Positions 10,633 to 37,881 are shown, counted from the stretch's first letter. The stretch is 43,189 nt of DNA from Candidatus Kapaibacterium sp. (GCA_044350705.1 JBILHA010000001.1:310242-353430); one strand, 5' to 3'. The notes: generated by a model from the sequence alone, not told the origin. Numbers and translations: made by a program.

Positions 10633-10660
10633 TTGACAAATTGAGGCAAGAGTGTATGCT
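10633..10660 (+). promoter_or_regulatory. Sigma70-type promoter of GC-rich cassette 1
   Basis: TTGACA-16-TATGCT; 7-bp inverted repeat AGGCAAG/CTTGCCT overlaps the -10. Confidence 0.6.
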
Positions 10661-10701
10661 TGCCTTCCGCTGCACTACTTTTGTCCTTCCATGAGGTGGA
10701 A

Positions 10702-11121
10702 ATGGCGCTGGTCGTATTGCCCGCGATGGGCATTGATCTCGGCTTCTGCGGGGCCGATGATCACATTCTGGTGGGCGTCGGGGGAAATCGCTTCGGCGTG
10801 TACCCTGAGTACTACACCAACGAGGAAGGTCTGTTCTTTAAGCTGGAGTTGTGGTGCAGTGAGGAGGATCTCTTCGCTGCCATCGACGCTCTGGTTGAGG
10901 ATCGTGACCCCGCTTCGCCCGATGTTCTGGAGGTCCTCCTCCGGGGCTGGAAGGGGGCTCGTGCGAAGGACGAGCTCAAGGGCGATCTCACTCTCCGCCA
11001 GGAGACGAAAAATCGTCTCGTGCGGGAGCTTCGTAGTTTCCGCAACGGTCCGTGGAGCGCCTATGTTGCTCAGCAGACCGATCATTTTCGTGGCCTTCGC
11101 AGGCCCGATCCCGTCAGTTAG
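10702..11121 (+). CDS. GC-rich orphan hypothetical protein (139 aa)
   Basis: GAGGTG SD before ATG 10702, promoter upstream, tandem hairpins downstream, G/C-ending codons in this frame. Confidence 0.7.
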   Translation: MALVVLPAMGIDLGFCGADDHILVGVGGNRFGVYPEYYTNEEGLFFKLELWCSEEDLFAAIDALVEDRDPASPDVLEVLLRGWKGARAKDELKGDLTLRQETKNRLVRELRSFRNGPWSAYVAQQTDHFRGLRRPDPVS

Positions 11122-11192
11122 CTCTTCTGAGCACTGACGGGGGGGGGTTCTGACCGGTGTCCCTCGTGGGGTGCCGGTCATTCTGTTTTTTT
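11110..11192 (+). terminator. Tandem hairpins and terminator of cassette 1
   Basis: CCCGTCAGT..GCTC-ttct-GAGC-ACTGACGGG, then TGACCGGTGTCCC-tcgt-GGGGTGCCGGTCA (G-U pairs only on +) followed by a T-rich tract. Confidence 0.7.
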
Positions 11193-11230
11193 CGTCTGTC
11201 TGATTTTTGTCACGAGCCGGGATGACTTTC

Positions 11231-12232
11231 TTATTCTGTAATTTCTCTGCCGAGAGTATATGCGGAGTAAAAGCTGTCTGGAAGATCTTTTACCTGTTTT
11301 GTCCAATCTGTTCCGTAGAGTTTTTTTGCGGTTTCTTCGCTTGCTATGCCTTGGAGAGTTCCATTTTCGGCAATGTGATACACCGTGGGTACGCTCTGGA
11401 GTTTGATCAAATAAGACCCAGGTTTTGGCATGACCGCGCCCTTCAAGGGAATGCGGCCCATTTCTTCTTTACTGATAAACTTTACTGATGAGAAGTTGGG
11501 GTACCAAGAGTAGAATGCATCTTCATTCTGGAAGACATATCTTCCCCCATCTTGTCCGCAGTAATAGACGGTTGAGAATTCTTCCGTACGAATGAGGCTG
11601 TTTGATGTGCAGAACGCTTCTTTTTCAGCAAGAGGAATTTCCTGGTTTTCATTAATCGTGAGTGAAGTTTGTGCGGCTTCGAGCTTTGGCGCAGAGAGAT
11701 AATTTGCGTATGCAGCCACGAGAGATTCGTACGGGTTGATCGGCGTACTTCCGTTATAAATTTGGAAGTGGAGGTGCGGCGCCGTGTTTTCGGCATTTCC
11801 GCTGTCGCCTACCCATCCGAGAAGCTGACCTTCGTTTACGTAAACTCCCTCTTTTACGCCAGGAGCATAGGCATTTTTTGCACCACCACGGCCATCATCA
11901 GTACCGGGGGTATCATTATTTAGGTGGATATAGTGATACGTTTTTTTGTCGTCTCCTGCGATCGTAATCATGTATCCGTAACTTGGCTCATTCATGGGAG
12001 CGAAGGTGATTACGCCGCTTGCTGCAGCGACCACGGGGGTCATTTTATCTGCCATGATATCTGTTGCGTGGTGCGTGCGTCCACCTCCGCGTGTGTGAAG
12101 AAAATCGTTGATAAACGTTACTTCACCTTGCACTGGGAAGGTGATGTCGCTTGTTGCTGCGTGAGTGATAAAAGGGAATGAGAACATTCCGACGCACAGG
12201 AATGTGAAAAATGAAAAAATGTAAAAATGCAT
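11231..12232 (-). CDS. Secreted M23 family peptidase with C-terminal surface domain
   Basis: Signal peptide ending THAA; HHATD, YIHL, VGDSGNA..TAPHLHF; C-terminal VYYCGQDGGRYVFQNEDAFYSWY domain. Confidence 0.88.
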   Translation of the reverse strand: MHFYIFSFFTFLCVGMFSFPFITHAATSDITFPVQGEVTFINDFLHTRGGGRTHHATDIMADKMTPVVAAASGVITFAPMNEPSYGYMITIAGDDKKTYHYIHLNNDTPGTDDGRGGAKNAYAPGVKEGVYVNEGQLLGWVGDSGNAENTAPHLHFQIYNGSTPINPYESLVAAYANYLSAPKLEAAQTSLTINENQEIPLAEKEAFCTSNSLIRTEEFSTVYYCGQDGGRYVFQNEDAFYSWYPNFSSVKFISKEEMGRIPLKGAVMPKPGSYLIKLQSVPTVYHIAENGTLQGIASEETAKKLYGTDWTKQVKDLPDSFYSAYTLGREITE

Positions 12233-12261
12233 AAAGCCCAAATAGCGTAGCAGATTTTCAA

Positions 12262-12291
12262 AAAAATCCCCAGTTTTCGTTGGGGATTTTT
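12262..12291 (-). terminator. Terminator after cruF-like gene
   Basis: AAAAATCCCCA...TGGGGATTTTT, followed by a T-run on the minus strand. Confidence 0.65.
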
Positions 12292-12292
12292 G

Positions 12293-13021
12293 CTAGTGGA
12301 AAAAAGGCCGCGCAAAGAATGGGAGCAATATTAATCCTATAAAGATGGGGAGAACGAAGAGAAAACCTCCGGCTGCTCCTGTCCAAAATCCTACAAGCAC
12401 CATTCCTCCCATGAGGAGCAATGAGATGTCCGTTTTTGGTTTCCAGATATATGCGCAGATGGTGTGCATGATGAGACCGCTCAGCACCCATCCGAAAAAA
12501 TTTTGTAAAGGAACGCCGTAATAAACCCCTGGCTTTTCCCATGACCAATACTTTAGTGCGGTAAGTGTTGGGTCGAGTACGAGGTCGATGCTTACAAGAA
12601 TGATGGTCGCGAGGATAATGCGGCTAAAGATGCTGTTTGTATATTTTTCTCCAAGCGCATGGGCTATAAAGAGTAGTGGAGGAAATGCGATACTTACGGT
12701 CCAGGGTACGAGATTTCCTATTTTTTCCCCAAGCGCATCTCCATAGGTGAATGAACTGTAAGGAAATCCTGTCGCGACCCCAATGCTTTCTATGATGAGC
12801 GCACTTATTCCGATTGCGGCCATGAGCAAGAAGGCACGAAAGGTTCCTTGGGCTTTTTGCAGTGCGAAAAATGTGCCTGCCGCAATAGCTCCTAAGCTCA
12901 TGATGGCGTAGAGAGGATGCTGCGTTGTTTGTGCTAGTTGGGGAAAGAAAAAACCTGCTATCATGCTTCCAAACACGATCATCCCACCTATGAACATGTC
13001 TTTTTCTCGGATTTTACGCAT
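12293..13021 (-). CDS. cruF: Carotenoid hydratase CruF (DUF422/bisanhydrobacterioruberin hydratase-like); start uncertain (13021, 12997 or 12982)
   Basis: IESIGVATGFPYSSFTYGDALG.K...VPW, DLVLDP......WSW...G.YYGVPLQNFFGW; multi-TM; crt context. Confidence 0.85.
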   Translation of the reverse strand: MRKIREKDMFIGGMIVFGSMIAGFFFPQLAQTTQHPLYAIMSLGAIAAGTFFALQKAQGTFRAFLLMAAIGISALIIESIGVATGFPYSSFTYGDALGEKIGNLVPWTVSIAFPPLLFIAHALGEKYTNSIFSRIILATIILVSIDLVLDPTLTALKYWSWEKPGVYYGVPLQNFFGWVLSGLIMHTICAYIWKPKTDISLLLMGGMVLVGFWTGAAGGFLFVLPIFIGLILLPFFARPFFH

Positions 13022-13841
13022 AAGTCGTCCTCGCTTTTGGATATATATTTTTGGTCCCTACCTTTTAGGCGCTTGTGCTGCGTTACTCGCAGCTGACACA
13101 TGGTCATTTTCTTGGCAAACGCTTCTTTTTGCAACTTACTTTCTTTTTTCCGCCAATCTTCTTATTTACGGCGTGAATGATATTTTTGATTATGAGACTG
13201 ATCGGTTAAATCCCAAGAAGCAAGGATATGAGGAGCTTGTGCGGCCGGAAGATCGTAAGCCACTTTGGTTTGCGATTGCCGTTTCCCACATACCCTATCT
13301 GCCCGCGCTCGTTTTCTTAGATTCTCGTGCCCTGCTCATGCTCGCGGGTTTTTGGTTCTTTTCTCTTGGATATTCTCTTCCACCGCTTCGTGCAAAAGCG
13401 CGACCATTTTTTGATTCTTTTTTTAATGTTCTTTACGTATTTCCTGCTTTTTTTTCGTATGTTCTTGGCGGGGGAGGAGCATTGTCCTGGCAGGTTGTTT
13501 TCGCGGCATGCTGTTGGGTTATGGCGATGCACGCATTTTCCGCAGTCCCCGATATCTCCGCGGATACGCATGCGGGCGTGCATACGATTGCTACGGTTCT
13601 TGGAAAAGGGCGCACGATTTTCTTATGCGGGTTTCTCTATGCTCTTTGCGCTTTTTTTGCGCTCCCCTCGCTCGAGTGGCTTGCCATTTATTTGGGGCTT
13701 GCGTACGTCCTCCTTATGATTTTTGCTTACTCTTCTTCCGATATCATGCGAATATATCGTCTATTTCCATGGGTGAATACGTTTGCAGGATTTTCCCTCT
13801 TTCTTTTCTTTGCTTTACAGCTGGTGCAGCGGCTCGGCTGA
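12990..13841 (+). CDS. lyeJ: UbiA-family prenyltransferase, lycopene elongase LyeJ/CrtEb-like
   Basis: SRPRFW.Y..GP, NLLIYGVNDIFDYETDRLNPKK, YSLPPLRAKARPFFDS..N.LY, MAMHAFSAVPDI..D; sits between crtI and cruF. Confidence 0.82.
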   Translation: MNMSFSRILRISRPRFWIYIFGPYLLGACAALLAADTWSFSWQTLLFATYFLFSANLLIYGVNDIFDYETDRLNPKKQGYEELVRPEDRKPLWFAIAVSHIPYLPALVFLDSRALLMLAGFWFFSLGYSLPPLRAKARPFFDSFFNVLYVFPAFFSYVLGGGGALSWQVVFAACCWVMAMHAFSAVPDISADTHAGVHTIATVLGKGRTIFLCGFLYALCAFFALPSLEWLAIYLGLAYVLLMIFAYSSSDIMRIYRLFPWVNTFAGFSLFLFFALQLVQRLG

Positions 13842-15329
13842 GGTGTCTCCGGTTAGTCGCTTATAGACGAGCTGAGCGCTAATGAGGCACATGGGCATGC
13901 CAATTCCTGGGTTGGTATTTCCCCCTACGTAAAAGAGGTTTTTTACTTTTTTGCTTTGTGTATCTGGTCGGAAGATCGCGGTTTGCCAGAGTGTGTGCGC
14001 GAGCCCAAGTGCGGTTCCTTGGTATGCGTTATACATGTCACGGAAGTCGCTTACGCAAAATGATTTTTCGTAGACGATGCGTTCGCGAAGATTGGGAATG
14101 TGCATTTCTTTTTCCATGGTAGCGAGCACTTGTTCCCGTGCCTTTTCCCGTTCTTTTGCGCCATCTTTAAGTCCTGCGGCAATAGGGACGAGCACGAACA
14201 AGTTTTCATGATGTTCAGGTGCTACGCTTGGATCGGTGACACTTGGCGCACATACGTAAAAAGAAGGATCTGTTGGCCATTGCGGGGTGTCGAAGATTTC
14301 TCCAAAGTTCTTTTTCCAATCTTGCGAGAAGAGAAGATTGTGATGGGTAAGGGAAGGGATGCGATCTTTTACCCCAAGATAGAGAATGAATGCGGAGGGT
14401 GCGAGTGTTCGTTTTTCCCAGTAGTCTTCACTGAATGAGCGTTCTTCTTTTGCGAGGAGTTTTTGTTCGGTGTGTGCGATGTCGGCGTTTGATACAACGA
14501 TATCCGCTTCAATAAATGATCCGTCTGTAAGCTCGACACCTATCGCTTCTTTATTTTTTGTACGAATGCGTGATGCAGTGGTTTGTGTTTTGCATACGAC
14601 ACCATGCTTTTCGCAGATGCGCACGAGTGTTTTGATGATTTCGTAAATACCACCTTGCGGGTAATACACACCCATGTTGAAATCGATGTGTGACATGATG
14701 CTGTAAAGTGCGGGAGTGTTGTAGGGGGAGCTTCCGAGAAATACCAAAGGATATTGCATGATTTTTTGTACTTCACTTGTTGCGAAATACTTTTTTACAT
14801 AGGTATCCATGGTTGAAAAAACGGAGAGTTTTATTCCGTCGGTCATGATTTCTCTTGTAAAGAAATCAAGAAGAGAATTGTAATTTTTATAAATAAAACG
14901 TGCTTTTGCAATGTCGTATTGCATTTTTGCACGTGAAAGATATTTTTCTAATTTTTCGCTCGATCCTGGTTCGAGTTTTTCGAATGTTTCTTTGTCTTTT
15001 GTGAGATCGGAATAGATGTCGACTTCTTTTCCGGTGTTTTTAAAGAAGATGCGATATGAAGGGGAGAGCTTTTTCAATGCAAGATGCTCCTCGACGCGTT
15101 CTCCGAGAAGTGAAAAATATTGTTCGAAAATATCGGGCATGAGATACCACGATGGTCCCATGTCAAAACGAAAACCTTCCGCTTCAAAGATGTTCGCGCG
15201 GCCTCCGAGATGTTCGTTCTTTTCGAGAACGGTTACATGAGCACCTTTTTTTGCAAGAAGCGCTGCGGTGCCTAAACCTCCGAATCCCGATCCAATGATG
15301 ACTACTTTTTTGTTTTTGATGTTGTCCAT
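13815..15329 (-). CDS. crtI: Phytoene desaturase family (CrtI; CrtD activity not excluded)
   Basis: GSGFGGL, LEKN...GGRA, FRFDMGPSWYLMPD, YYPQGG, GTALGLAHTL.QTA.FRP, PGIGMPMCLISA. Confidence 0.92.
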   Translation of the reverse strand: MDNIKNKKVVIIGSGFGGLGTAALLAKKGAHVTVLEKNEHLGGRANIFEAEGFRFDMGPSWYLMPDIFEQYFSLLGERVEEHLALKKLSPSYRIFFKNTGKEVDIYSDLTKDKETFEKLEPGSSEKLEKYLSRAKMQYDIAKARFIYKNYNSLLDFFTREIMTDGIKLSVFSTMDTYVKKYFATSEVQKIMQYPLVFLGSSPYNTPALYSIMSHIDFNMGVYYPQGGIYEIIKTLVRICEKHGVVCKTQTTASRIRTKNKEAIGVELTDGSFIEADIVVSNADIAHTEQKLLAKEERSFSEDYWEKRTLAPSAFILYLGVKDRIPSLTHHNLLFSQDWKKNFGEIFDTPQWPTDPSFYVCAPSVTDPSVAPEHHENLFVLVPIAAGLKDGAKEREKAREQVLATMEKEMHIPNLRERIVYEKSFCVSDFRDMYNAYQGTALGLAHTLWQTAIFRPDTQSKKVKNLFYVGGNTNPGIGMPMCLISAQLVYKRLTGDTSAEPLHQL

Positions 15330-16174
15330 AGTGAAATGAGGATGCGAATTTTTTCGGTGAATGAAGTTTTTGCTCGGGATGTGAAGATGTTGTAGTTTTG
15401 CTGTTCTATTTTTCGTAAAATTTCTTGATAGAGTCTGCTTGCGAGAAGGACCGCAAAGCGCCCACGTTTTTCAAGAAGTGCGATGCCGAGCGTGGCTTCT
15501 TGATACAGTGCATCGGCGCGTGCGATCTCTTCTTTGAGAAGTGCGGTCATGTTTTCTGACATTCGCTGATGAGCAATGTCGGACTCGGTAACGTGATGCT
15601 TGCGCAGATCTTCTAAAGGAAGATAAATGCGACCCCGTGTTTCAAAATCTTCCTTGATATCACGAAGAAAATTTGTGAGTTGCATGGCGTATCCGAGCTT
15701 CTTTGCGTATTCGAGCGCTGTCGGATCTTTGTATCCGATGACATATGTCATCATGAGGCCAACGACTGCCGCTGATCCATACATATACTGTTCAAGATCC
15801 GCATAGGTTTCGTATCGGCACACGCTGAGGTCTTGTTCCATGGCGTGTAAAAAATCTTCAGCGTATGTTTTTGGAATGTGATACGTATGAAAAACCGCGC
15901 TTGTTGCGCGAAGTACGGGATGCGATGAAGTTTGCTTTTCGTACGCGTCATCCCATTCTTTTATGAATGCATTCAGCGCCTTTTGCTTTTCTTGATGCGA
16001 TTGATTTGGTGATGAATCTACAATTTCGTCGGGAACTCTAAAAAATGCGTAGAGGACGTGCGTGGCATCACGGAGATGTTTTGGAAAAAGACGCGTGGCG
16101 AATGCATAACTTTTTCCATGATATTCATGGATTTTTTTGCATATGAGCACGTCTTCGGGTTGAAGCGTCTTCAT
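15302..16174 (-). CDS. crtB: Phytoene synthase
   Basis: HGKSYAFAT, LYAFFRVPDEIVD, MEQDL, YMYGSAAVVGLM, AMQLTNFLRDIKED, GRIYLP; ATGA overlap with crtE stop. Confidence 0.93.
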   Translation of the reverse strand: MKTLQPEDVLICKKIHEYHGKSYAFATRLFPKHLRDATHVLYAFFRVPDEIVDSSPNQSHQEKQKALNAFIKEWDDAYEKQTSSHPVLRATSAVFHTYHIPKTYAEDFLHAMEQDLSVCRYETYADLEQYMYGSAAVVGLMMTYVIGYKDPTALEYAKKLGYAMQLTNFLRDIKEDFETRGRIYLPLEDLRKHHVTESDIAHQRMSENMTALLKEEIARADALYQEATLGIALLEKRGRFAVLLASRLYQEILRKIEQQNYNIFTSRAKTSFTEKIRILISLWTTSKTKK

Positions 16175-17196
16175 ACGCGTCGGGATTCGAGGAGGGCGAT
16201 GAGCGTTTCCCATTCCTGTTTTATATCGTCATGAAAGGGCGCGTGCATAAGCGCTGTTCGAGCCTCGGCAAAAGCGTGATTGATTTCGCGCGTTGCGAAA
16301 TGGAGCGCTCCTGAATTTTGCAAGACTTTTCGGAGCGTTTCCTTTTCTTCGTTGGAGAGTTTTTTCCCTAGGCTCGTTCGAAGTATTTTTTGCTGTTCGG
16401 CGTTCCCTTTTTGAAAGACGTAGTGCGTGATAAGCGTCTGTTCGCCTTGTTCAATGTCACGCATGCTGTCTTTTTTAATTTCTTCTTCTTGCGCGGTAAC
16501 ATCAAAGAAATCATCTTGCATCTGAAAGGCTCTTCCGAGGGCAATGCCGATATCCTTTGCTGAAGCGAGTTCGTTTTCTGTTGCTCCTGCGATGTGCATG
16601 CCTAATTGCAGTGGGCGTACGAAGGTGTAGCTGCCGGTTTTCAAGTCGATTTTTTTTAGAATAGTCTCTTGCGTTACCGTTTCTTGTTTCATGCAGCCTA
16701 CGTCGATCATTTGCCCGGTCACTACTTCGTCAATCATGCTAAAAAAAGTTTCGTGGCATGCGATGGGAGCTTCTCTGAGGAGTTCCATTGACCAAGCGTA
16801 TACAAGATCGCCGACAAGAAGCGCTTGAGAAAGTGCGAGATGATCGCGTTCTTTTTCTTTCTGAAACTGTTCTTTGGCTTTTGTTTCAATCGTTGGAATT
16901 CCTCGACGTGTTTTTGCTTTGTCGATGATGTCGTCGTGAATAAGTGCAAAGCCATGAAAAAGCTCGATTGCTATGCCGAGTTTTGTTGCCATGGAGGAAT
17001 CTCCCTTTGTTGTTTGTGCGCCCAGAGAAATGATGTATGGACGTACCCGTTTTCCCCCGGAAAGGAGAGGAAGGAGATGGTCTATGAGTTCTTCTACGAT
17101 GGGTTCAGGAAATGTGTTTTTATACCGCATTATCCTTTCCTGGAGATGAGCGTTGAATGTTGGGCTAAATTGCGAGATGAAATGCGCGAGGTCCAT
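16171..17196 (-). CDS. crtE: Polyprenyl (geranylgeranyl) diphosphate synthase
   Basis: GGKRVRP, ELFHGFALIHDDIID...RRG, GQMID, KTGSYTF, FQMQDD. Confidence 0.88.
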   Translation of the reverse strand: MDLAHFISQFSPTFNAHLQERIMRYKNTFPEPIVEELIDHLLPLLSGGKRVRPYIISLGAQTTKGDSSMATKLGIAIELFHGFALIHDDIIDKAKTRRGIPTIETKAKEQFQKEKERDHLALSQALLVGDLVYAWSMELLREAPIACHETFFSMIDEVVTGQMIDVGCMKQETVTQETILKKIDLKTGSYTFVRPLQLGMHIAGATENELASAKDIGIALGRAFQMQDDFFDVTAQEEEIKKDSMRDIEQGEQTLITHYVFQKGNAEQQKILRTSLGKKLSNEEKETLRKVLQNSGALHFATREINHAFAEARTALMHAPFHDDIKQEWETLIALLESRRV

Positions 17197-17242
17197 ACTG
17201 CCCTAATAAGCGGCTTTAGTGTATCACGTTTGCCCTATTTCA

Positions 17243-17710
17243 TCAGGAATTGAGCAGGTATGCAACAAGAAGCATGAGTGCGCTCCACCAGCCGATATCC
17301 GAGATAATGAGACTTATTGCAATGCGCTTTTGCCAGGAGGGAGGAAGTATTTTGTGTGATTTCCCTTCTTTTTCTCGTTTGATCAGATACGGACTTACTG
17401 AGCAAGAGAGAAAACACCCGTTGAGAAGAAGAATACTCGCAATGCATGCGTGCATGAGGGGTATTCCTGAAAGCGTTTCGTTTCGATAGAAAAGAAGCCC
17501 TCCGAAGATTGCGAGGCAGATACCTGTCCAAATCATGGGTTTGGTGACTTTGTGCGTGCGCGTGGTAGCTTCCGTCCAATATTCCGATTTCATTCCGAGG
17601 AAACCATGAATGTCGATGACCGTTACCGCGCCAAGACCAATGACAAATCCTGCGAGCAAAAGAAAGAGCCCGAAGAAGTCGATGGGGTTAATTGAGAGTC
17701 CAAAAAGCAT
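17243..17710 (-). CDS. Four-TM membrane hypothetical protein
   Basis: Hydrophobic segments, GFVIGLGAVTVID.HG motif; co-directional between tspO and crtE; start moved to ATG 17710. Confidence 0.7.
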   Translation of the reverse strand: MLFGLSINPIDFFGLFLLLAGFVIGLGAVTVIDIHGFLGMKSEYWTEATTRTHKVTKPMIWTGICLAIFGGLLFYRNETLSGIPLMHACIASILLLNGCFLSCSVSPYLIKREKEGKSHKILPPSWQKRIAISLIISDIGWWSALMLLVAYLLNS

Positions 17711-18191
17711 AATTGAGATAGGTTGCGAATGATACCCAGAGAAGGTATGGCACAAGGAGCCATGCGGCCGTTTTTGAAATACGTGAAAAAAGTATGATGG
17801 TTGCTACGATTGCAAACCAAAGTACGATGATCTCACCAAGTGCCGCGGCGATATTTTGTGCGCCAAAGAAAAGAATTGACCAGAGGGCATTGAGGATGAG
17901 TTGTGTGAAGAATATCGTCAGGGTGATTTTGCCGTGTGTGGTATGTCGGGCCTTTTCCCATACGAGAAATGCCGCGTATCCCATGAGTGTGTAGAGCGTT
18001 ATCCATACAGGTCCAAAGAGCCATGATGGGGGAGTGATTGCTGGTTGCTCGAGGGTAACATACCAATTTTTTACCGAGTTAGCGGTGAACAACGATCCAA
18101 TGATTCCTGCGCTTTGTGAGAGGGCGATAAACAATGCGATGGGTTTCCATGCTTGTTTTCGTGCGTGCTGTTTTCTCGGAGCATTTCGCAT
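17688..18191 (-). CDS. tspO: TspO/MBR (CrtK) tryptophan-rich sensory protein
   Basis: WYVTL.QP..TPPSWLFGPVWITLY, QLILNALWSILFFG, LLVPYLLWVSFATYLN. Confidence 0.93.
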   Translation of the reverse strand: MRNAPRKQHARKQAWKPIALFIALSQSAGIIGSLFTANSVKNWYVTLEQPAITPPSWLFGPVWITLYTLMGYAAFLVWEKARHTTHGKITLTIFFTQLILNALWSILFFGAQNIAAALGEIIVLWFAIVATIILFSRISKTAAWLLVPYLLWVSFATYLNYAFWTLN

Positions 18192-26880: not shown

Positions 26881-27754
26881 AGAGTACTTGTGCAAGAAAA
26901 CACACCGGTGATCCTTCCTTCCAATGCTCGGGAATTTTTGGAAACATAATTACTCCGTCATGCGTTGCGATAAGCGGGACAGTTCCATGGGTGCCAAGTA
27001 CATCTCCGGCTTTGAAAGCTTCAAATGAGCCTTCTCCTCGTGCCGGTGCGAAGGTAAAACCTTCTTGAGTGAGTAGAATGGTCTCTGTAAGACGATAACG
27101 TTTTCGGGTGGTTCGGTCGCGCGTTTGTTGCTCATGAGTTTCTTCGTGAACCCCGTTTTTTTCTTTGATCATATAGAGAACGCTGCGCATCATCTCAGGA
27201 ATGCGACTAAGGTCTTCGACCCATCCACTTTCATAACAAACGCTTTGTGCGCCGTGCGCGTTTGCATAGCCGATGGTTGTTCCTGCGATAACATCATTTG
27301 GTACAACGAGTTCTTTTTCGCAGGTAAAATAGGTGCAAAGTGCCTGCTGTGCTTGATCATCGGTGGCGATAACGAGAAATGGTTCTGACGGCTTATTGGT
27401 TGCGTGAAGATCAATAACGAGGTCGGCGCTTTTGAGAAGTGGAGCGAGGATTCGTGCGCGTTCTATTTCATAATCCGTTCGATCGCCTTCGAGCAGCGCA
27501 TCGATAAAGACACGATTGATGTCGGCGTGCGGCTCTGAGCCGCGCGTATTTTTTTCTATTGCGCGTGGGTTACCTAATGCAAGGATGAGCTTTCCTTTTT
27601 CTATGGTTATTTCTCTTTTTTCGCATTTTTCCTTGAGTTGCTTTACAACGGTGATACCTGTTTTTTCATTTCCGTGAATACCCCCCAGGAGTACGGTCGT
27701 TGGTCCAGGATTTTTTCCGGTGATTTCCCAGATGGCTTCTGCGATTTCTTGCAT
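26879..27754 (-). CDS. Succinylglutamate desuccinylase/aspartoacylase (M14-like) family protein
   Basis: GGIHGNE, GNPRA, DINRVF, IDLH, YESG; start set at ATG 27754 (the track's extension overlaps the GNAT). Confidence 0.85.
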   Translation of the reverse strand: MQEIAEAIWEITGKNPGPTTVLLGGIHGNEKTGITVVKQLKEKCEKREITIEKGKLILALGNPRAIEKNTRGSEPHADINRVFIDALLEGDRTDYEIERARILAPLLKSADLVIDLHATNKPSEPFLVIATDDQAQQALCTYFTCEKELVVPNDVIAGTTIGYANAHGAQSVCYESGWVEDLSRIPEMMRSVLYMIKEKNGVHEETHEQQTRDRTTRKRYRLTETILLTQEGFTFAPARGEGSFEAFKAGDVLGTHGTVPLIATHDGVIMFPKIPEHWKEGSPVCFLAQVL

Positions 27755-27801
27755 AAGATGTGAGAATAGTATGACAAAAGGTTTTTTGTTGGGAAGGGTT
27801 A

Positions 27802-27827
27802 CCCCTCCGGTCGCGGGACCGGAGGGG
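27802..27827 (-). terminator. GC-rich hairpin directly after the GNAT stop
   Basis: CCCCTCCGGTC-4nt-GACCGGAGGGG; no immediate U-tract. Confidence 0.5.
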
Positions 27828-27831
27828 ACGA

Positions 27832-28719
27832 TTACGCACGGCGGGCCATGAGCCAGTTCTTGAGTGGCGTGAGCCGCTCGGTGACGTGAATCACGTTCCA
27901 GTTGATGTCGAGGCCGGGCGCGGCCTTGTACATCCGGATCTGGTCGTACGTGTGGCCGTGGGTTTCTCCGAGACCAGGCAGGACTCCGCAGAACGTGTAG
28001 CCCTGTGCGCGCCACTGCCGGATTTCTTCGATCGCGTCGGGCCAGTTGATGGGCAGATCGACGAAGGTCGACCCGATCGCATGCTTCCCGATGTACGGGT
28101 TGTGGAGATGGGGATCGGGGCAGGGCGGAGGAAGATCCTCGTTCCATCCGCGCTCCATCACCATGCTCGGCACGATCGCGGCGATTACTTGGGCGATGTC
28201 ATCGGGGAGGTAGACGCGACGACGTCCGAAGCCGGTATCTCCCTGTAGCGCCCGCATGGCGAACGTCACGGTCTCAGGCTGACCGATGTGCTGCTTGATC
28301 CCTGGGTACTTCGTCACACTGATGCCCAGCGGCACGAATCCCTCGTGTTCGAGATTCAGCTGCGATGCGAGGTCTGGGCGGTTGCAGACCGGCTCAGAGA
28401 TGGCCGCGATCATGCCCTGGGCGATGGCGGCATCCAGCCGTGCATGCGTGAGGCGCTTAGCCACGCCGTTCCCGCGCTTTTCGGGGTCAATGATGATCCC
28501 CCCGAGCTCAACTACGCCATTGTGGTTGGGCACGGGCTTCGCTCGCGCGAAGCCGCGGATCTTGCCTTCCTTGCACTCGGCGACGACTTGGATGCCGATG
28601 CGAATGCCATCTTCCGTCAGCTGGTACGGGTAGTCCCCATACTCCTGCTGGTAAAGGTCATTGATGGCACCGATGTCGCGGGTGGTGACGGGGCGGACGA
28701 TGATTTCGGTGGTGCTCAT
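27832..28719 (-). CDS. GC-rich GNAT-family N-acetyltransferase with extra C-terminal domain
   Basis: IIVRPVT..D, ELGGIIIDPEKRGNGVAKRL (acetyl-CoA motif A), SQ.NLE..GF.P.G; GGAGG SD at 28725-28729. Confidence 0.78.
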   Translation of the reverse strand: MSTTEIIVRPVTTRDIGAINDLYQQEYGDYPYQLTEDGIRIGIQVVAECKEGKIRGFARAKPVPNHNGVVELGGIIIDPEKRGNGVAKRLTHARLDAAIAQGMIAAISEPVCNRPDLASQLNLEHEGFVPLGISVTKYPGIKQHIGQPETVTFAMRALQGDTGFGRRRVYLPDDIAQVIAAIVPSMVMERGWNEDLPPPCPDPHLHNPYIGKHAIGSTFVDLPINWPDAIEEIRQWRAQGYTFCGVLPGLGETHGHTYDQIRMYKAAPGLDINWNVIHVTERLTPLKNWLMARRA

Positions 28720-28798
28720 GGGTTCCTCCAGGGTTTTCCTGTGCGGGATTCGCCCTCTCTCGACATGAGCGAGGGCGAAGGAGGCACAGGAAGGCAAG

Positions 28799-28834
28799 AA
28801 AAAAACACCGCGTTTTATACGCGGTGTTTTTTTT
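28799..28834 (-). terminator. Attenuator terminator (segments 3:4)
   Basis: Minus strand AAAAAAAACACCGCGT-ataaa-ACGCGGTGTTTTTTT, between leader ORF and GNAT. Confidence 0.8.
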
Positions 28835-28863
28835 CATGAAGGTGAATTATTCGTTCATTATCT

Positions 28864-28944
28864 TCATGTTAAAGCAACACCGCGTTGCGGAGTAAAGAGG
28901 ACCACGAGAATAATGTGCATTGCGGTGTTGCGCACGGAATTCAT
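28864..28944 (-). CDS. Attenuator leader peptide MNSVRNTAMHIILVVLFTPQRGVALT
   Basis: 26-aa ORF just after a TTGACA/TATCGT promoter; Ile-Ile-Leu-Val-Val-Leu run; contains segments 1 and 2 of mutually exclusive hairpins. Confidence 0.72.
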   Translation of the reverse strand: MNSVRNTAMHIILVVLFTPQRGVALT

Positions 28945-28953
28945 ATTGGTTTT

Positions 28954-28983
28954 ACGATAACCTTAGATCTCCTTTATTGTCAA
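28954..28983 (-). promoter_or_regulatory. Sigma70-type promoter for leader/GNAT
   Basis: TTGACA (28983-28978), 18-nt spacer, TATCGT (28959-28954). Confidence 0.6.
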
Positions 28984-30731: not shown

Positions 30732-30734
30732 ATT

Positions 30735-31001: not shown

Positions 31002-31119
31002 AGGGTGACGCATTATTTTTACTCAAGATGTACTGTGAATATAGCAAGCTAAGAAAAAATAGCCAGAGATTGGGTGTGAGAAGAATGGAATATGCATATT
31101 TTTTGTTCACGATGAATAG

Positions 31120-31128
31120 TTATCCACA
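31120..31128 (+). promoter_or_regulatory. DnaA box
   Basis: Perfect TTATCCACA in a divergent intergenic region; degenerate TTGTTCACG at 31103. Confidence 0.45.
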
Positions 31129-32230: not shown

Positions 32231-32247
32231 TGGTCTGTTTTTCTTTT
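32211..32247 (+). terminator. Terminator
   Basis: AAAAGCAGACC-gtataat-GGTCTGTTTTT plus T-rich tail. Confidence 0.6.
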
Positions 32248-32288
32248 GCGGAATTTGCTATGGTTGGTATGAAATTTTTTTCATTTCT

Positions 32289-32918: not shown

Positions 32919-32950
32919 AAAAAACACCCGACATGCTCGGGTGTTTTTTT
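32917..32950. terminator. Bidirectional terminator
   Basis: AAAAAAACACCCG-acatgct-CGGGTGTTTTTTT. Confidence 0.85.
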
Positions 32951-33872
32951 ATGCGGCGCATTCTGCAAATGCTTTCTCGAACTGCTCTTTATTTATGTCG
33001 TGTCCAATGATGACGAGCTTGCTTGCCCGTGGTTCATTTGGTTCCCATGGGCGATCGGGCAGATTTTCATACGTGTACCCGCCTCCTTGGAAAACGAAGC
33101 GCTCCTCCTTTCCTTCCAGGGCAAAGATGCCTTTATACCGGAGCAGTTTGTCGCCGTTCAGGACAAGATGTTCTCCAATGAATCGTCCGATTTTTTCTGC
33201 GGAAAGAGGCTTGTTGCTCGTGAGAAAAATTGAGGTGATGCCTGAGCTGTGTGCGTGTGTATTTGGTGCTGATTGCACGTGAGCCTGTACGGCTTCTGGT
33301 GCGGAGAACGAGAGTATGTCGGCATGGGTAACGAGGGGAGCATGTGCGTTGAGCGCGTGCATGCGTTTCTCGAGGTCTTCCGGAATGCGATTTTGTGTAA
33401 GGTCGGTTTTTGTGACGATGATGAGTTGTGCATTTTTTATTTGGCTCTCCCATTCCGGATAGTGCGCGTGTTCTTCGGCATGTTTTGCATCTACGAGCGT
33501 AATAACTGCGTTGAGTGAAAAATGCTTTGCAAGGGTAGGGCGGTTGAAGAACGACTTCATGAGCGGAAGGGGATCTGCAAGGCCGGTTGTTTCAATGATG
33601 ATGAGATCAAGCTGCTCTTGGGTGAGCGAAAGGAGATTTGCAAGTGCTTGATGAGTATCGCCAAGTGCGGCGCAGCAGAGCGCTCCCCCGGGAAGTTCCA
33701 CGATATTTTTTGCTTTTTCTTTGAGCAGCGCTCCATCAATGCCTACTTCGCCAAATTCGTTTACGATGAGCGCGATGCGTTTTTTGTTTTGTTCGCCCAG
33801 CGTTTTTTGCAGCAGGGTAGTTTTTCCGGCGCCGAGGAATCCGGTGAGTATGGTAACGGGGATGGGTGTCAT
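32949..33872 (-). CDS. CobW/COG0523 GTPase (metallochaperone)
   Basis: [22 protein letters not shown] (variant of GCxCC), [17 protein letters not shown]. Confidence 0.9.
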
Positions 33873-33905
33873 ATCGTTCAGCGATGTACGTTTTTTTGTC
33901 CTTTG

Positions 33906-34319
33906 TTATGTTTTCTCTACGTATTTTTTAAAATTTTCAAGAATTGCCTGCCAACCTTGGCGCTGCATCTCTTCGGAATTTTCTTCTTCGGGATCAAAGG
34001 TCTCAATTACTTTGACGCCGTCCTCGTCTTTTACGAACGAGATATTCACTCGGCGACCATCATCCATTGCATAGCTTATCGTATGCAGATGGGATACCTC
34101 AGTATATTTTCCTGTGAAGTCAAAGCTCGCATTACCGTCTTTGGCGGCCATCACGGTTTTGAAGCTTCCCCCCGTGCGAAGATCGTTTTCTGCGCTGGGA
34201 GCTTCCCAGTCATCAGAAGCGTGGCACCATTTGGTGATGTGTTGCGGTTCTGTCCAGTATTCCCATACTTTTTCAATGGGGGCATTAATGATCGTTTCTA
34301 CGGTTATTTTTTTGTTCAT
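33906..34319 (-). CDS. SRPBCC/AHSA1-domain protein
   Basis: KITVET.INAPIEKVW..WT.P.HI.KW..ASDDW, QRQGWQAILENFKKYVE; start ATG 34319. Confidence 0.88.
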   Translation of the reverse strand: MNKKITVETIINAPIEKVWEYWTEPQHITKWCHASDDWEAPSAENDLRTGGSFKTVMAAKDGNASFDFTGKYTEVSHLHTISYAMDDGRRVNISFVKDEDGVKVIETFDPEEENSEEMQRQGWQAILENFKKYVEKT

Positions 34320-34366
34320 AGTTCGCATGACTATAGCAATTTTTTTTCGCATCAGCATTTTTTTGA

Positions 34367-34389
34367 CATATATCCGTTGCGGATATATG
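34367..34389. promoter_or_regulatory. Probable PadR operator overlapping the -35
   Basis: Perfect 10-bp inverted repeat CATATATCCG-ttg-CGGATATATG overlapping TTGACA (34363-34368) just upstream of padR. Confidence 0.7.
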
Positions 34390-34409
34390 GTTCTTTTATA
34401 ACCTGATAT

Positions 34410-34760
34410 ATGAGCAGTACTTCTCTTACTCCCGCAGTGCTTCACATTCTCCTCGCGCTCTCCACTGAAGAGCGCCATGGGTACGGAATTATGAAGCAAG
34501 TTGAACTGGATTCAGACGGAAAGATTAAAATGGGTCCCGGTACGCTGTATGGGTCTCTTGGTCGTATGCTGGAAGCAGGACTTATTCGCGAAAGCGAAAA
34601 GAGAGTTGATCCTGTGATGAATGATGAACGACGTATTTACTATCGCATTACGGCACATGGGCAAAAGGCATTAGCTCATGAAATTGAACGATATCGTGCG
34701 GTAGTTTCGGTTGCTCAGCAAAAGCATCTTTCACCTTTTAGCTTCGTGTATGTCGCGTAA
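34410..34760 (+). CDS. PadR family transcriptional regulator (short type)
   Basis: HILLAL...RHGYGIM..V, GPGTLYGSL.RM...GLI, RRIYYRIT..G. Confidence 0.92.
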   Translation: MSSTSLTPAVLHILLALSTEERHGYGIMKQVELDSDGKIKMGPGTLYGSLGRMLEAGLIRESEKRVDPVMNDERRIYYRITAHGQKALAHEIERYRAVVSVAQQKHLSPFSFVYVA

Positions 34761-35541
34761 CGTATCAGAACGTTATCGCTTGTGGTACGCGTGTTTTCTG
34801 CGCTTGTATCCTCGATCGTATTATGATCGCTTTGGTGAAGCAATGGAGCAAACGTTCCACGACTTGTATTGTGAATATCAGAAGACATCTTGCCACACAC
34901 TTTGGTTTGTAGGAGGAATATTTTGTGAAACATTTTTGGGAATTTTAAAAGAACATCTTGTCTCTTTCTTTATGGAAAATACGGTGAAAAGACTTCTCGT
35001 GTGGGCAGGGGGCGTAGCGCTCTTATTGATGATTCCTTTGGTGCTCACGCTTACCGGAAGCGGAAAAGAAGGTGAGGGATGGTATTGGACTGCGAGTGAT
35101 TTTGTTTTCGCGTTTGTGCTCATGTTCGGAGCGGGAGCTACATATGAAGTGATAAGTAAAAAGATGACAAATAATACTTGGTACAAAATGGCAGTTGGAT
35201 TGGCGGTGCTTACGGGTTTTCTGCTGCTCTGGGTAAATGCTGCGGTAGGTATTATTGGAAGCGAAGATAATCTTGCGAATGTGCTGTACTTTGGTGTGAT
35301 CGCGATCGGATTTTTGGGAGCGATCATTGCTCGTTTAGAAGCAAAAGCAATGGCAAAAGTGCTGTTTACGGTTGCCGCTGTACAGATGGCTGTTCCAGCG
35401 TTTGCGTTTGCTCTCTGGCAACCTCCTTTTACGTTGGGTGTTGTGAGGGTATTTATGCTCAATGCATTCTTTGCCATGTTCTGGGTAGGATCTGGTTTAT
35501 TGTTCCGTCAGGCGGGCAAGGCGGGAATAAAGAAAGCGTAA
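34750..35541 (+). CDS. PadR-associated membrane protein
   Basis: N-terminal LRLYP..Y.DRFG.AM..TF.D sensor-like motif followed by about 6 TM. Confidence 0.75.
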   Translation: MSRNVSERYRLWYACFLRLYPRSYYDRFGEAMEQTFHDLYCEYQKTSCHTLWFVGGIFCETFLGILKEHLVSFFMENTVKRLLVWAGGVALLLMIPLVLTLTGSGKEGEGWYWTASDFVFAFVLMFGAGATYEVISKKMTNNTWYKMAVGLAVLTGFLLLWVNAAVGIIGSEDNLANVLYFGVIAIGFLGAIIARLEAKAMAKVLFTVAAVQMAVPAFAFALWQPPFTLGVVRVFMLNAFFAMFWVGSGLLFRQAGKAGIKKA

Positions 35542-35591
35542 AAAATCCCCACGAAGTTCCAAAGGAGCGACGTGGGGATGTTCTTTGCAAA

Positions 35592-35993
35592 TTATTTTTT
35601 AGGCATGAGCAATGGGCGATACATTGCGCGCTGTTGCCAGAGGAAATAGATATTGATGAGTGCAAGAATGTTACCCATGACTGCTCCTGCGGTGAAGAGG
35701 CCGCCATCTAAGAAGAGATGAAATGCAACGATATTTACTGTCAGCGGGAGGATGAGGAGTGCGGTCAGTGCTTCACGTTTCGTCCAAAGGGCTACGAGGG
35801 CTAAGATAAAGATCATTGCCATGATCGCGTTGATATATCCTGCGCTCATGAGTGTTTGGATGAAAGTGAAAGCTTCCGGAGTGTTGTACAGATCTGCGGT
35901 GGGAGCGGGGAAGAAGCCCAGTGCACCGAAGATAGGCATGATCATGATGAGACTGAGAACAATTTTGAGCACGATATCGATGGCTTTTTTCAT
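35592..35993 (-). CDS. DoxX-like membrane protein
   Basis: Four TM; LPLTVNIVAFHLFLD. Confidence 0.6.
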   Translation of the reverse strand: MKKAIDIVLKIVLSLIMIMPIFGALGFFPAPTADLYNTPEAFTFIQTLMSAGYINAIMAMIFILALVALWTKREALTALLILPLTVNIVAFHLFLDGGLFTAGAVMGNILALINIYFLWQQRAMYRPLLMPKK

Positions 35994-36027
35994 ATTTTTT
36001 TACCTGTTATAGGCGAAGTATACTTCA

Positions 36028-36333
36028 TTATTTTTTCGTTCGTTTTTTGAGTATTCCTTGTACTGACGGACTGATCTTTTTGTCGGTTCGATGAATACAT
36101 CCGATCCAGCAACATGGTCGACGCTTTCCTTTTCCTAGATCCTCGAGGAGTCGGATGACGTGCTCCTTTCTTGTCTTCTCTTGCTTCACATACGTCACCC
36201 AGCAAATCCATTCATTACGTGCGAGGGGAGTGAGGCTCTCCCAAGTGGCAAGTACTGCTTTATTCGATGCTAAGGCTTTTTGCATGTCCGATGGAAGCTG
36301 GTGGACGGTGCCGCTCGAGATGTTTACACTCAT
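36028..36333 (-). CDS. YdeI/OmpD-associated family protein
   Basis: [21 protein letters not shown]...[16 protein letters not shown]. Confidence 0.85.
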
Positions 36334-36689
36334 ATTTTTTCTTTCCGCAAAATTTTTTCCATGGATTTTCCTTTTGCTAATTCGTCGATAAGTTTATCGA
36401 GATAGCGAATTTCACGCATAAGGGGATCTTTAATCTCTTGTACCTTTACGCCGCAGATGATGCCGGAAATGAGTTTTCGGGAGGGGTTTGGTTTTGGAGC
36501 TTTGGCAAAAAAGGTTTCAAAGTTCGTTTGCTTCTGTAGATGAGATTCTAATCCTTTTTGCGTGTATCCCGTAAGCCATCGGATGATTTTATCAACTTCT
36601 GCTTTTGCGCGTCCTTTTTTCTCCGCCTTTGCCACGTATAAAGGATAAACCTTCGCAAAACTCATGGTGTAAATACGATGATTGGTCAT
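36330..36689 (-). CDS. DUF2200 family protein
   Basis: [52 protein letters not shown]. Confidence 0.9.
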
Positions 36690-36690
36690 A

Positions 36691-37122
36691 TCAGCATCCG
36701 TACTGGCCGTTCGCAGTCTTTTTCTTCATATATTGGTACGTTTGCTTGATGAGCTGCGACAGTATCTTCTGATCAACATCCGCCAACTTATTGATATATA
36801 AACATGCTACGCTCGTTTTATGCTTACCTAGCTTTTTGAGAAGTGCGGTATTATCACCGGCAAGAACGTACAGCGTGAGATTCTGCTTGCGCGGAGAGAA
36901 ACCAACGAGAGGCCAGTCGCCTTCTTGTGCGCTTCTCTCTGATGTATAGTGATACATTCCAAATCCTACAATGCTCGTACCCCACATTGTACCTTTCTCT
37001 CCTGTTGCCTTTTGAAACATTTCTAAAAGCGCAAATGCGTCCTTTCGCTTCTGCTCTGGCTCAATCGTCCTTAAAAAATCTTCTGGTTTCTGTTTTGTGG
37101 GTTTTGTTTTGAGTTCTGCCAT
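36691..37122 (-). CDS. DUF1801 (YdhG-like) domain protein
   Basis: [51 protein letters not shown]. Confidence 0.88.
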
Positions 37123-37232
37123 AAACTTCTTTTCTTTGGAGTGCATACCATTTTCATAACAAAAGAACCAGCTGTCTCGAGCTTACCGCAGCGGATCGTA
37201 TCGAGCGTCGTTTTTCTTTCTTGATAGCACGA

Positions 37233-37256
37233 GGCACGCCCCAGACGGAGCGTGCC
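37233..37256 (-). terminator. GC-rich hairpin after cassette 3
   Basis: Minus strand GGCACGCTCC-gtct-GGGGCGTGCC shortly after the stop; no immediate U-tract. Confidence 0.5.
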
Positions 37257-37265
37257 CACGACGTG

Positions 37266-37616
37266 TCAGTCCTCGAATTCGAGGGCGACACGTTTGATCC
37301 GCCGAAAGCGGACGAATCGGAATCCTTGGTTGCGAGCCCCGTAGAAGTCGATCTTTTTCGGATCGTTTTCTTCGACGCTCTCTGACCAGAGCATCCGAAT
37401 GCCCTCGGTGCACAGGACGGCGATCACTGATAGTGGCGCCACAACGACCATCGTATCGAATCTTCCCTCGCGGAATCGATGCGCGATTTCATGCGCGTCG
37501 TCGAATGGACGAGGTTCCCGCTTGATTATGACATCGTCCCCGTATAACGCCTGCAGGGCGCTGATCTGACGGGGGTGGGGGCGGTGGCGCGACATCCAGA
37601 GAACCTTTTTCGCCAT
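37266..37616 (-). CDS. GC-rich small alpha/beta hypothetical protein (116 aa)
   Basis: AAGGAG SD 7 nt before ATG 37616; promoter TTGCTC-17-TATTCT upstream; N-terminal VLWMSRH motif. Confidence 0.75.
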   Translation of the reverse strand: MAKKVLWMSRHRPHPRQISALQALYGDDVIIKREPRPFDDAHEIAHRFREGRFDTMVVVAPLSVIAVLCTEGIRMLWSESVEENDPKKIDFYGARNQGFRFVRFRRIKRVALEFED

Positions 37617-37881
37617 CGTTTGTCTCCTTGGCGGTGGCTCGACCAAACAATTGATCGACGGAGGAGAATACCATTTTTTTAGGACATGAGCAAGAAATCG
37701 AGTGGCTTACGAAGATGATTTTAAGCTTGGGTGGTCATGTGGCAACGGCAAAAATTGCCGAAATTATGTTTGAAAAGATAAGGTAAATTTGTGAATTCTC
37801 AATTTTGAGGATTTTTGCGTTCCAGGTGCTTGGGTTTTCAGGGCGAGCTGCCAAGGGTCGTAATTTGCTCAAGCTTTAAAC

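Follow-up and report, generated by a model that had tools for sequence, protein, structure and literature searches.

A gene that differs in base composition from everything around it poses a plain question, which is whether the difference was brought in from elsewhere or is kept in place. The question is raised three times over by a 43,189-nt stretch of DNA from Candidatus Kapaibacterium sp. (GCA_044350705.1, JBILHA010000001.1:310242-353430; hereafter the window, meaning the whole stretch that was analysed), in which three genes, here called g1, g2 and g3, stand out as short GC-rich islets in AT-richer surroundings. An earlier note on this DNA had read them as a single class of one-gene cassettes, either captured at the size of a messenger RNA (mRNA) or tuned to a different translation context. 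The reading favoured here, on balance, is that the islets are three separate horizontally acquired single genes ('genomic islets') in intergenic DNA, and the family of g3 is found to hold its GC-richness in a way that a plain scar of transfer fails to explain.

Three GC-rich genes in an AT-richer window

The GC content of the window is 45.5 per cent, and exactly three stretches (10661-11220, 27721-28820 and 37181-37660) pass a filter of at least 0.11 above the window median of 0.45 over 240 nt, applied alongside a sliding GC profile. A two-state likelihood fit places the best-fitting segments at 10704-11177 for islet 1 (GC 0.61 inside, 0.44 outside), 27791-28795 for islet 2 (0.63 and 0.43) and 37168-37644 for islet 3 (0.58 and 0.42), with one open reading frame (ORF) to each stretch. 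GC at third codon positions (GC3) reaches 0.693 in g1, 0.801 in g2 and 0.692 in g3, against 0.429 ± 0.052 and a maximum of 0.567 in the 43 other ORFs (z-scores of 5.1, 7.2 and 5.1). The base and codon composition of the three genes thus deviates from the rest of the window, of which they are the only GC islands, as the earlier note had described.

The genes have no sequence similarity to one another, and their third-position base use differs sharply (A3, C3 and T3 are 0.03, 0.37 and 0.28 in g1; 0.09, 0.49 and 0.11 in g2; 0.18, 0.42 and 0.12 in g3; and 0.28, 0.25 and 0.29 in other window genes), which argues for separate sources and against a single mechanism. Distances of 17 kb and 9 kb separate the islets, which form no array, and no border motif is common to them apart from a 10-mer that is not enriched. 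With unrelated genes, unlike codon signatures and no enriched border motif, the proposal of one class made by one mechanism finds no support. Elsewhere in the window a Pfam scan of 47 ORFs shows the genes of ordinary cellular DNA, among them those for ABC transporters, a carotenoid cluster, TspO, a RimK-like ligase, a Pif1-like helicase, an M3 peptidase, CobW and small DUF proteins, and the neighbours of the islets are housekeeping or metabolic genes.

Abrupt composition changes in what is probably a metagenome assembly could also mean that foreign reads were joined into the contig during assembly or binning. Such an artefact is highly improbable here, given that the protein records of g1, g2 and g3 all list four contigs with the same longest one (509,231 bases), that the junctions are intergenic with host-type signals intact on both sides, and that a gene-sized GC step recurs around relatives of g3 in 14 independent assemblies.

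Structure of the islets

Islet 1 is made up as follows.

10633-10660, plus strand: promoter-like site (TTGACA-16-TATGCT, 10 of 12 matches)
10659-10701, plus strand: g1 leader, with the 10-mer CTTGCCTTCC at 10659-10668 and the Shine-Dalgarno (SD) site GAGGTG at 10693-10698
10702-11121, plus strand: g1, 139 aa, GC 0.60, GC3 0.69, of a sparse uncharacterised family
11151-11192, plus strand: intrinsic-terminator-like hairpin of 13 pairs, 8 of them G-C, then a T run

The leader of g1 is neither GC-rich nor unusually folded (z +0.6); the islet is GC-rich from the start codon, not from the transcript start, and the GC-rich segment ends at 11177. A word-indexed search with g1 returned only itself, and an exhaustive HMMER search of 1.84 billion representatives gave 14 proteins including g1. 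The 13 relatives are 26-49 per cent identical to it and share invariant C16, D20, H21 and E49 and a near-invariant W51. The GARP/FYMINK amino-acid ratio of g1 is 1.72, the highest among 46 window proteins (0.87 ± 0.23), and that of its 13 distant relatives is 1.28-2.65, which is typical of GC-rich genomes. No Pfam, NCBIfam, PADLOC or PHROGs family matches g1. Its predicted structure is confident (predicted local distance difference test score 95.1) and has no fold match in the PDB at E <=0.001 (best E 1.6); an Atlas search with g1 gave only scores below 0.9.

Islet 2 lies on the other strand, behind a long leader.

28954-28983, minus strand: promoter-like site (TTGACA-18-TATCGT, 10 of 12 matches) in AT-rich, host-like DNA
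28799-28947, minus strand: AT-rich structured leader with a 26-codon ORF and three hairpins
28944-28864, minus strand: near-leaderless 26-codon ORF (MNSVRNTAMHIILVVLFTPQRGVALT), rich in Ile, Leu and Val
28833-28799, minus strand: terminator hairpin with a U run, the last of the three in the leader
28720-28798, minus strand: GC-rich g2 leader, with the 10-mer at 28798-28789, a hairpin at 28792-28736 and the SD site GGAGG at 28729-28725
27832-28719, minus strand: g2, 295 aa, two-lobed GNAT-type N-acetyltransferase, GC 0.62, GC3 0.80
27802-27827, minus strand: perfect 11-bp GC-rich hairpin after the g2 stop, without a U run; the GC-rich segment ends at 27791

Judged from its sequence, g2 is a GNAT N-acetyltransferase: it matches PF00583 at 34.7 bits (cut-off 20.7), and its Atlas structure model matches clusters of two-lobed GNAT proteins of about 300 aa at template-modelling scores of 0.79-0.82. 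All NCBIfam equivalogs fall far below their cut-offs, PHROGs offers a generic acetyltransferase match only, PADLOC gives nothing useful, and a sequence search finds no PDB match. The GC-rich DNA of islet 2 starts one base past the U run of the terminator hairpin at 28833-28799. No promoter adjoins g2, the nearest promoter-like site (28983-28954) lying beyond the 26-codon ORF and this hairpin, so that the gene could be read only by read-through. The AT-rich leader folds strongly (z -5.3, with none of 200 shuffles as stable), and the arms of its first and last hairpins are near-identical, so that anti-terminator pairing appears possible from the sequence. The leader also resembles the Rfam family Leu_leader weakly, at 30 bits against a gathering threshold of 50 (E 0.025), and all Rfam matches in or near the islets are similarly sub-threshold. 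The GC-rich leader that follows folds at -39.1 kcal/mol (z -4.4).

Islet 3 is bracketed by a short direct repeat.

37665-37693, minus strand: candidate g3 promoter read by eye (TTGCTC-17-TATTCT, 8 of 12 matches, below the scan threshold)
37745-37718, minus strand: promoter-like site further upstream (10 of 12 matches)
37617-37644, minus strand: GC-rich part of the g3 leader, with the SD site AAGGAG at 37629-37624
37266-37616, minus strand: g3, 116 aa, GC 0.57, GC3 0.69, of a highly conserved uncharacterised family
37168-37265, minus strand: GC-rich tail after the g3 stop, with a 10-bp hairpin (arms 37256-37247 and 37242-37233)
37145-37154: direct repeat ATACCATTTT, downstream copy, overlapping the start codon of the next gene
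37668-37677: direct repeat ATACCATTTT, upstream copy, overlapping the candidate -10 element of g3, at a spacing of 523 nt

The islet remains GC-rich for about 100 nt beyond the stop of g3. The model predicted for g3, a confident one, shows an alpha/beta fold whose C-terminal hairpin is basic. The protein matches nothing in Pfam, NCBIfam, PADLOC or PHROGs, the PDB holds neither a sequence match nor a fold match at E <=0.001, and a viral fold library returns two unnamed phage proteins (E 3.4e-5 and 4.6e-4), which serve as a lead only. Long antisense ORFs over g3, found in five loci of its relatives (cluster C6), were put down to GC-richness and set aside; in the window no such ORF reaches 80 aa.

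A promoter of its own had been claimed for each gene, and this agrees with g1, which has a promoter-like site with 10 of 12 matches; none adjoins g2, and the candidate for g3, read by eye, has 8 of 12. The claim that the GC shift follows the transcript boundaries is not borne out, as the borders enclose the coding sequence and a few tens of bases. That claim had led to the idea of RNA-sized capture, in which a transcript is copied into DNA and inserted, so that composition changes at the transcript ends. Exactly one gene per islet, with its SD site and a hairpin after the stop, is what such capture would yield. The GC borders, however, lie off the likely transcript ends (at the start codon in islet 1, after the upstream terminator in islet 2, and about 100 nt past the stop in islet 3), the 47 ORFs include no reverse transcriptase or retron-like gene, no A-rich tail is seen, and in the relatives of g3 the coding part alone is GC-rich while leader and terminator are AT-rich. 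Capture of this kind is very unlikely.

Translation signals, terminators and repeats

A generic anti-SD sequence was folded against the 20 nt upstream of 44 starts. The duplex energies of g1, g2 and g3 (-10.1, -9.3 and -8.5 kcal/mol) rank 1, 2 and tied 3-4, and a pairing of -6 kcal/mol is reached by three of the 41 other genes, leaving 38 without an SD site; by the hypergeometric distribution, the six SD-bearing genes would include all three GC-rich ones with a chance of 20/13244 = 0.0015 (hand arithmetic). Many of the other genes carry a TAnnnT element 6-12 nt before the ATG. Folding energies of the 70 nt after the stop put the three genes at ranks 1, 3 and 4 of 44. Strong SD sites, hairpins just after the stops, and SD-poor, partly leaderless surroundings, all reported in the earlier note, are therefore real features of this DNA.

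The 10-mer CTTGCCTTCC is a more equivocal matter. It does stand at the start of both the g1 and the g2 leader, as had been said, but a third exact copy lies within g2 (28561-28570), and when up to one mismatch is allowed 4 occurrences are seen where 2.94 would be expected, a number equalled or bettered in 34 of 100 shuffles. Since it is not enriched and is absent from all 30 g3-related loci introduced below, the 10-mer was rejected as a border or recombination motif. To judge from the sequence it may pair with the SD site in the leaders, of which the g2 leader alone is significantly folded. A perfect 12-nt inverted repeat (28560-28571 and 28788-28799), through which the first 12 GC-rich nt of the g2 leader complement a stretch within the g2 coding sequence, accounts for the third copy, and long-range pairing between the two is possible.

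The 10-nt direct repeat around islet 3 departs from the earlier statement that there is no target duplication. A repeat of this kind occurs in 1.0 per cent of random placements, or about 3 per cent for three tries, and as an insertion mark it is suggestive only.

One ORF with an imperfect inverted repeat behind it, together with the 10-mer at the head of two islets, might recall cassettes moved by site-specific recombination, integron-like or other, that have lost a former integrase neighbourhood. No attC core (GTTRRRY or RYYYAAC) lies in the roughly 190 nt around each 3' end or the roughly 105-115 nt around each 5' end, there is no tyrosine recombinase in the window and there are no arrays, the hairpins are short stems of the terminator type, and the 10-mer has the shortcomings just given. 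This origin, too, can be given very little credence.

The g3 family and its neighbourhoods

There is reason to look beyond the window for g3, of which 158 relatives were detected; the 120 listed are 57-81 per cent identical and about 116 aa long. Named relatives belong to Patescibacteria, that is, the candidate phyla radiation (CPR), with Magasanikbacteria and Uhrbacteria among them, and across CPR lineages of phylum rank the protein keeps an identity of 60-80 per cent. Species-representative genomes, scanned with a profile, supplied 30 g3 loci (L001 to L030), none of them from the window's own genome. These are mostly from CPR (Paceibacteria, Komeilibacteria, Saccharibacteria, Doudnabacteria, Uhrbacteria), and the others come from metagenome-assembled genomes labelled Nanoarchaeota, Gammaproteobacteria, Planctomycetota, Chloroflexota and Marsarchaeota. 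In a maximum-likelihood tree, a core clade of 20 rows that includes the window copy has support of 98/97, and the tree cuts across the organism labels. The g3 genes of L003 ('Parcubacteria') and L004 ('Komeilibacteria') are near-identical (nonsynonymous difference pN 0.004), and that of L001 ('Nanoarchaeota') pairs with that of L002 ('Paceibacterota').

ORF clustering and Pfam show that in six loci g3 forms a block with a 158-aa protein (C3) and a giant one of about 1400 aa (C2). The block is shared between metagenome-assembled genomes labelled as different CPR phyla and is probably a mobile element or plasmid binned into several of them. The block occupies 1250-6351 in L003 and 3-3256 in L004 and is also present in L005, L007, L009 and L010; C2 has a MIDAS-like DNSGS motif and C3 is LRV-like. 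In eight of the 30 loci (L013, L015, L016, L017, L018, L020, L024 and L026) g3 lies beside bpMoxR-type ATPases, von Willebrand factor A (vWA) proteins and a third large protein, with Csx3-like and HD-domain genes close by. Large serine recombinases adjoin g3 in L007 and L011, AbiEii and RadC in L004 and L011, and tRNA genes lie within about 600 nt of it in L006, L009 and L014; in L016 and L020 it sits within a multi-gene GC-rich island of an AT-richer contig. The recombinases, AbiEii/RadC and MoxR/vWA neighbours point to g3 as accessory cargo of mobile elements and of conflict-type neighbourhoods.

None of these mobile or conflict-type neighbours is present in the window, whose 47 ORFs contain no MoxR or vWA domain by Pfam, and which shares nothing with the g3 loci except g3 itself and generic ABC ATPases. 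A phmmer comparison of the 1088-aa neighbour of g3 (38066-41332) with the giant proteins found beside g3 in other loci gave no match.

Two further kinds of neighbour were seen in the g3 loci. A second small GC-rich ORF directly follows g3 in L004 (3345-3695, 116 aa, GC 0.56, with its own SD site) and in L011 (about 6440-6820), where AT-rich genes for AbiEii and RadC come after it; no Pfam family matches the ORF, and its presence indicates that small GC-rich genes can come paired in g3 elements. Another giant neighbour (about 1235-1275 aa) ends in a C-terminal GNAT domain and follows an HTH_3 regulator in L001 (406-4110), L002 (479-4180) and L006 (6640-10464); no similarity between it and g2 of the window was detectable.

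GC-richness kept through divergence

The compositional contrast of g3 is not peculiar to the window. The margin of the gene over the rest of its locus is 0.10 GC or more in 14 loci out of 30, and in 13 of the 17 in which the remaining DNA is below 0.48 GC (L011 reaches 0.095). Exceptions are L021, L022 and L026, members of a distant subfamily (43-46 per cent identity) in which the GC of the gene equals that of its flanks. Resolved at 60 nt, the GC step matches the extent of the g3 coding sequence, which is about 0.15 above its surroundings. A near-consensus promoter, an AAAGGAGG SD site and a terminator of its own, all in AT-rich DNA, accompany the gene in L003, L004, L005, L007, L009 and L011. 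Throughout the core clade, g3 has a GC of 0.53-0.65 whatever the GC of the flanks (0.39-0.59).

This composition has persisted over long divergence. Between the window copy of g3 and 14 relatives, the proportion of synonymous differences is 0.67-0.83, that is, saturated. Within the six-locus block C2, C3 and g3 diverge in parallel: synonymous divergence (dS) between L005 and L009 is 0.57 for C3, 0.42 for g3 and 0.55 for C2, and in all other pairs it is at least 1.06 for g3 and at least 2.7 for its neighbours. The synonymous difference (pS) of g3 is somewhat below that of the neighbours (0.57-0.67 against 0.73-0.79) in six of the eight saturated pairs. Over the same history the GC3 of g3 has stayed at 0.58-0.77 and that of C2 and C3 at 0.26-0.44, and the GC at four-fold sites is 0.49-0.79 in g3 and 0.25-0.40 in C3.

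By the amelioration argument, the atypical composition of a transferred gene is expected to decay with synonymous change. Since g3 stays GC-rich through saturated synonymous change beside AT-rich neighbours that diverge with it, its composition appears to be maintained and not left over. Given that expectation of decay, a plain transfer scar fails to explain the g3 data. It might be maintained by selection on the message, by biased repair where recombination is frequent, or by repeated replacement from a GC-rich pool. In this respect the earlier suggestion of a differently tuned gene class fits the g3 family better than a fading scar of transfer would.

These observations bear most directly on the account in which GC-richness is a selected and heritable property of a set of genes, held together with self-paired RNA, a strong SD site and a hairpin, to which the three islets would belong whatever their origin. 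Possible reasons would be long-lived or nuclease-resistant transcripts, or strong expression amid leaderless AT-rich messages. The indifference of g3 to its flanks, the low-GC loci in which its excess is kept, its persistence beside co-diverging AT-rich genes, its somewhat reduced synonymous difference, and the promoters, SD sites and terminators of its relatives all speak for such a set; that persistence has been seen for g3 only, and the codon signatures of g1, g2 and g3 differ, both of which speak against extending it to all three.

Excess folding of coding sequences

Native coding sequences were compared with within-gene synonymous-codon shuffles, only 20-25 for each, with the following z-scores.

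g3 homologues (n = 10): all below 0, mean -2.55; window copy -3.6
g1 (n = 1): -4.8
g2 segments (n = 3): -1.8, -0.95 and -2.2
AT-rich controls, nine window genes and four C3 genes (n = 13): mean -0.80, standard deviation 1.08
Segments of AT-rich giant neighbours (n = 8): mean -0.49
GC-rich genes of L025 (Chloroflexota), L028 (Planctomycetota), L030 (Parcubacteria label) and L012 (n = 9): mean -0.61
GC-rich MoxR/vWA-type genes beside g3, segments from five loci (n = 16): all at or below -1.98, mean -4.56
Other genes of the GC-rich CPR loci L013, L015 and L017 (n = 8): -2.2 to -5.6
AT-rich genes flanking the GC-rich blocks of L016 and L020 (n = 4): about 0

Dinucleotide-preserving shuffles agree with the synonymous-codon shuffles. 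Better folding than in shuffles, found in all ten g3 homologues and strongly in g1, also speaks for selected GC-richness. The same excess is nevertheless present in every tested gene of L013, L015 and L017 (8/8) and every MoxR/vWA-type segment (16/16), at z about -2 to -10, and may simply mark a donor lineage. The scores also carry the coarseness of so few shuffles, and one ordinary AT-type gene, the SET-domain gene at 2755-3168 (plus strand), reaches -3.2 with both kinds of shuffle as the only outlier among the AT-rich controls. A conserved RNA structure was looked for across 20 g3 coding sequences and not found (consensus -16 kcal/mol, covariation term -0.66), which indicates general self-pairing and not an embedded RNA element.

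The folding excess ties g1 and g3, and more weakly g2, to a gene pool of the CPR type that is rich in GC, and fits either a mark of the donor lineage or a selected property; in GC-rich CPR contigs it may reflect lineage-wide selection for mRNA self-pairing. Taken as a whole, the account by selection is a minority possibility for the three islets. Equally tentative is its wider form, in which small accessory genes circulating in CPR (g3 most clearly, possibly also g1 and g2) would be selected for GC-rich self-paired coding sequences, strong ribosome-binding sites and hairpins in any genome.

Origin of the islets

Separate acquisition of three single genes is the account considered probable, with reservations. 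Each islet would have kept signals of its donor, namely the SD site, GC-rich codons and the GC-rich hairpin after the stop, and the remaining donor DNA would have been trimmed away, giving the look of a one-gene cassette. Transcription would come from host-type AT-rich promoters, and in the case of g2 by read-through of a host-type leader and terminator; the donor would be a GC-richer pool of the CPR type. The contrasts of composition, SD sites and hairpins, the patchy and mobile-element-linked distribution of g3 and the differing codon signatures are the observations on which this scheme is built, and transfer, donor pool and trimming are what they suggest. Distribution as seen in sequence searches is sparse and patchy for all three genes (14 proteins for g1, one close relative for g2, a g3 tree that runs across labels), and this supports transfer. 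Single-gene transfers have been described as common in Patescibacteria, with 83 per cent of them within the phylum (PMC12455944).

Several results weigh against this account. No donor was found, the best non-self identities being 49 per cent (g1), 61 per cent (g2) and 81 per cent (g3), so that none of the three is demonstrably a recent transfer; near-identical donors, which the earlier note had named as the sign of ordinary transfer, are thus lacking among the matches. The single close relative of g2 (P0002), which comes from a 1.4-kb contig and is 61 per cent identical over 75 per cent of the length of g2, is of the AT type in its amino-acid composition. As that note had stated, neither an integrase nor an insertion sequence was found in the Pfam scan of the 47 ORFs, and no other recombinase either; no tRNA gene was found in the window, tblastn gave no match to g1, g2 or g3 in phage and plasmid records, and no flanking repeats of at least 8 nt surround islets 1 and 2. 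To these is added the persistence of GC in g3, set out above.

Other features of the window

Three further observations concern the window apart from the islets. A carotenoid cluster at 12293-18191 (cyclase-domain protein, UbiA prenyltransferase, desaturase, phytoene synthase and polyprenyl synthase) adjoins TspO and would be unusual metabolism if the organism were a CPR bacterium. The Rfam LOOT RNA family (RF03000) is matched over its full length at 41373-41502 (plus strand), in the gap between the 1088-aa ORF that neighbours g3 and an ORF at 41563, with 52 bits where the gathering threshold is 46.4 (E 4.5e-07). The end of the window, 42151-43189, is AT-rich (GC 0.26-0.34) and contains an open-ended ORF (42200-43189, minus strand, GC3 0.29) with a weak PADLOC match only (CARF_2OG, E 0.0023), so that the window also holds an island deviating in the AT direction.

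Significance and comparison with known systems

At the level of the window the finding is ordinary, namely small foreign genes in a reduced genome. Atypical GC commonly serves as a clock-like mark by which recent transfer is recognised, and a gene that held its composition indefinitely would break the assumption on which such a clock depends; g3 offers a test case for selection on GC and mRNA folding. If the account by selection is true, g3-type genes have a compositional identity of their own that resists the mutational bias of the host, and their messages might be long-lived or nuclease-resistant amid AT-rich leaderless mRNAs or during the activity of conflict systems. A second lead is the folding excess of GC-rich CPR loci, which is not shared by GC-rich genes in contigs labelled Chloroflexota or Planctomycetota.

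With the genomic islets described in Patescibacteria the three genes have in common atypical composition, patchy distribution and intergenic position, and the transfers reported there, mostly within CPR and with some exchange between Patescibacteria and DPANN, match the labels of the g3 loci (PMC12455944). The present case differs in that there is no donor and no mobility gene in the window, and in that the composition of g3 has not decayed.

The MoxR-vWA ternary conflict systems are reported mainly in multicellular bacteria and not in CPR (PMC7159879). The likeness to them is that g3 adjoins a bpMoxR ATPase, a vWA protein and a third large protein in eight of its 30 loci. The window differs in having no MoxR or vWA gene, and g3, a small additional gene, is none of the three components by which the systems are defined.

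Phage morons are self-contained units of promoter, gene and terminator with deviant GC, inserted between genes. The islets share with them a single gene, an own promoter-like site, a ribosome-binding site, a terminator and GC unlike the surroundings; unlike morons they have no prophage genes around them, and g1 and g3 match neither PHROGs nor any phage record. Integron cassettes are likewise compact, consisting of a single ORF with an inverted repeat, sometimes without a promoter as in g2, whereas the islets lack attC cores, an integrase and an array.

The leader of g2 invites one more comparison. The trp, leu and ilv attenuators regulate transcription by a leader-peptide mechanism, and the g2 leader resembles them in its short ORF rich in Ile, Leu and Val, its alternative hairpins and its U-run terminator, with a Leu_leader match that stays below threshold. 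What follows such leaders is an operon for amino-acid biosynthesis, in the place of which stands, in the window, a foreign-looking acetyltransferase.

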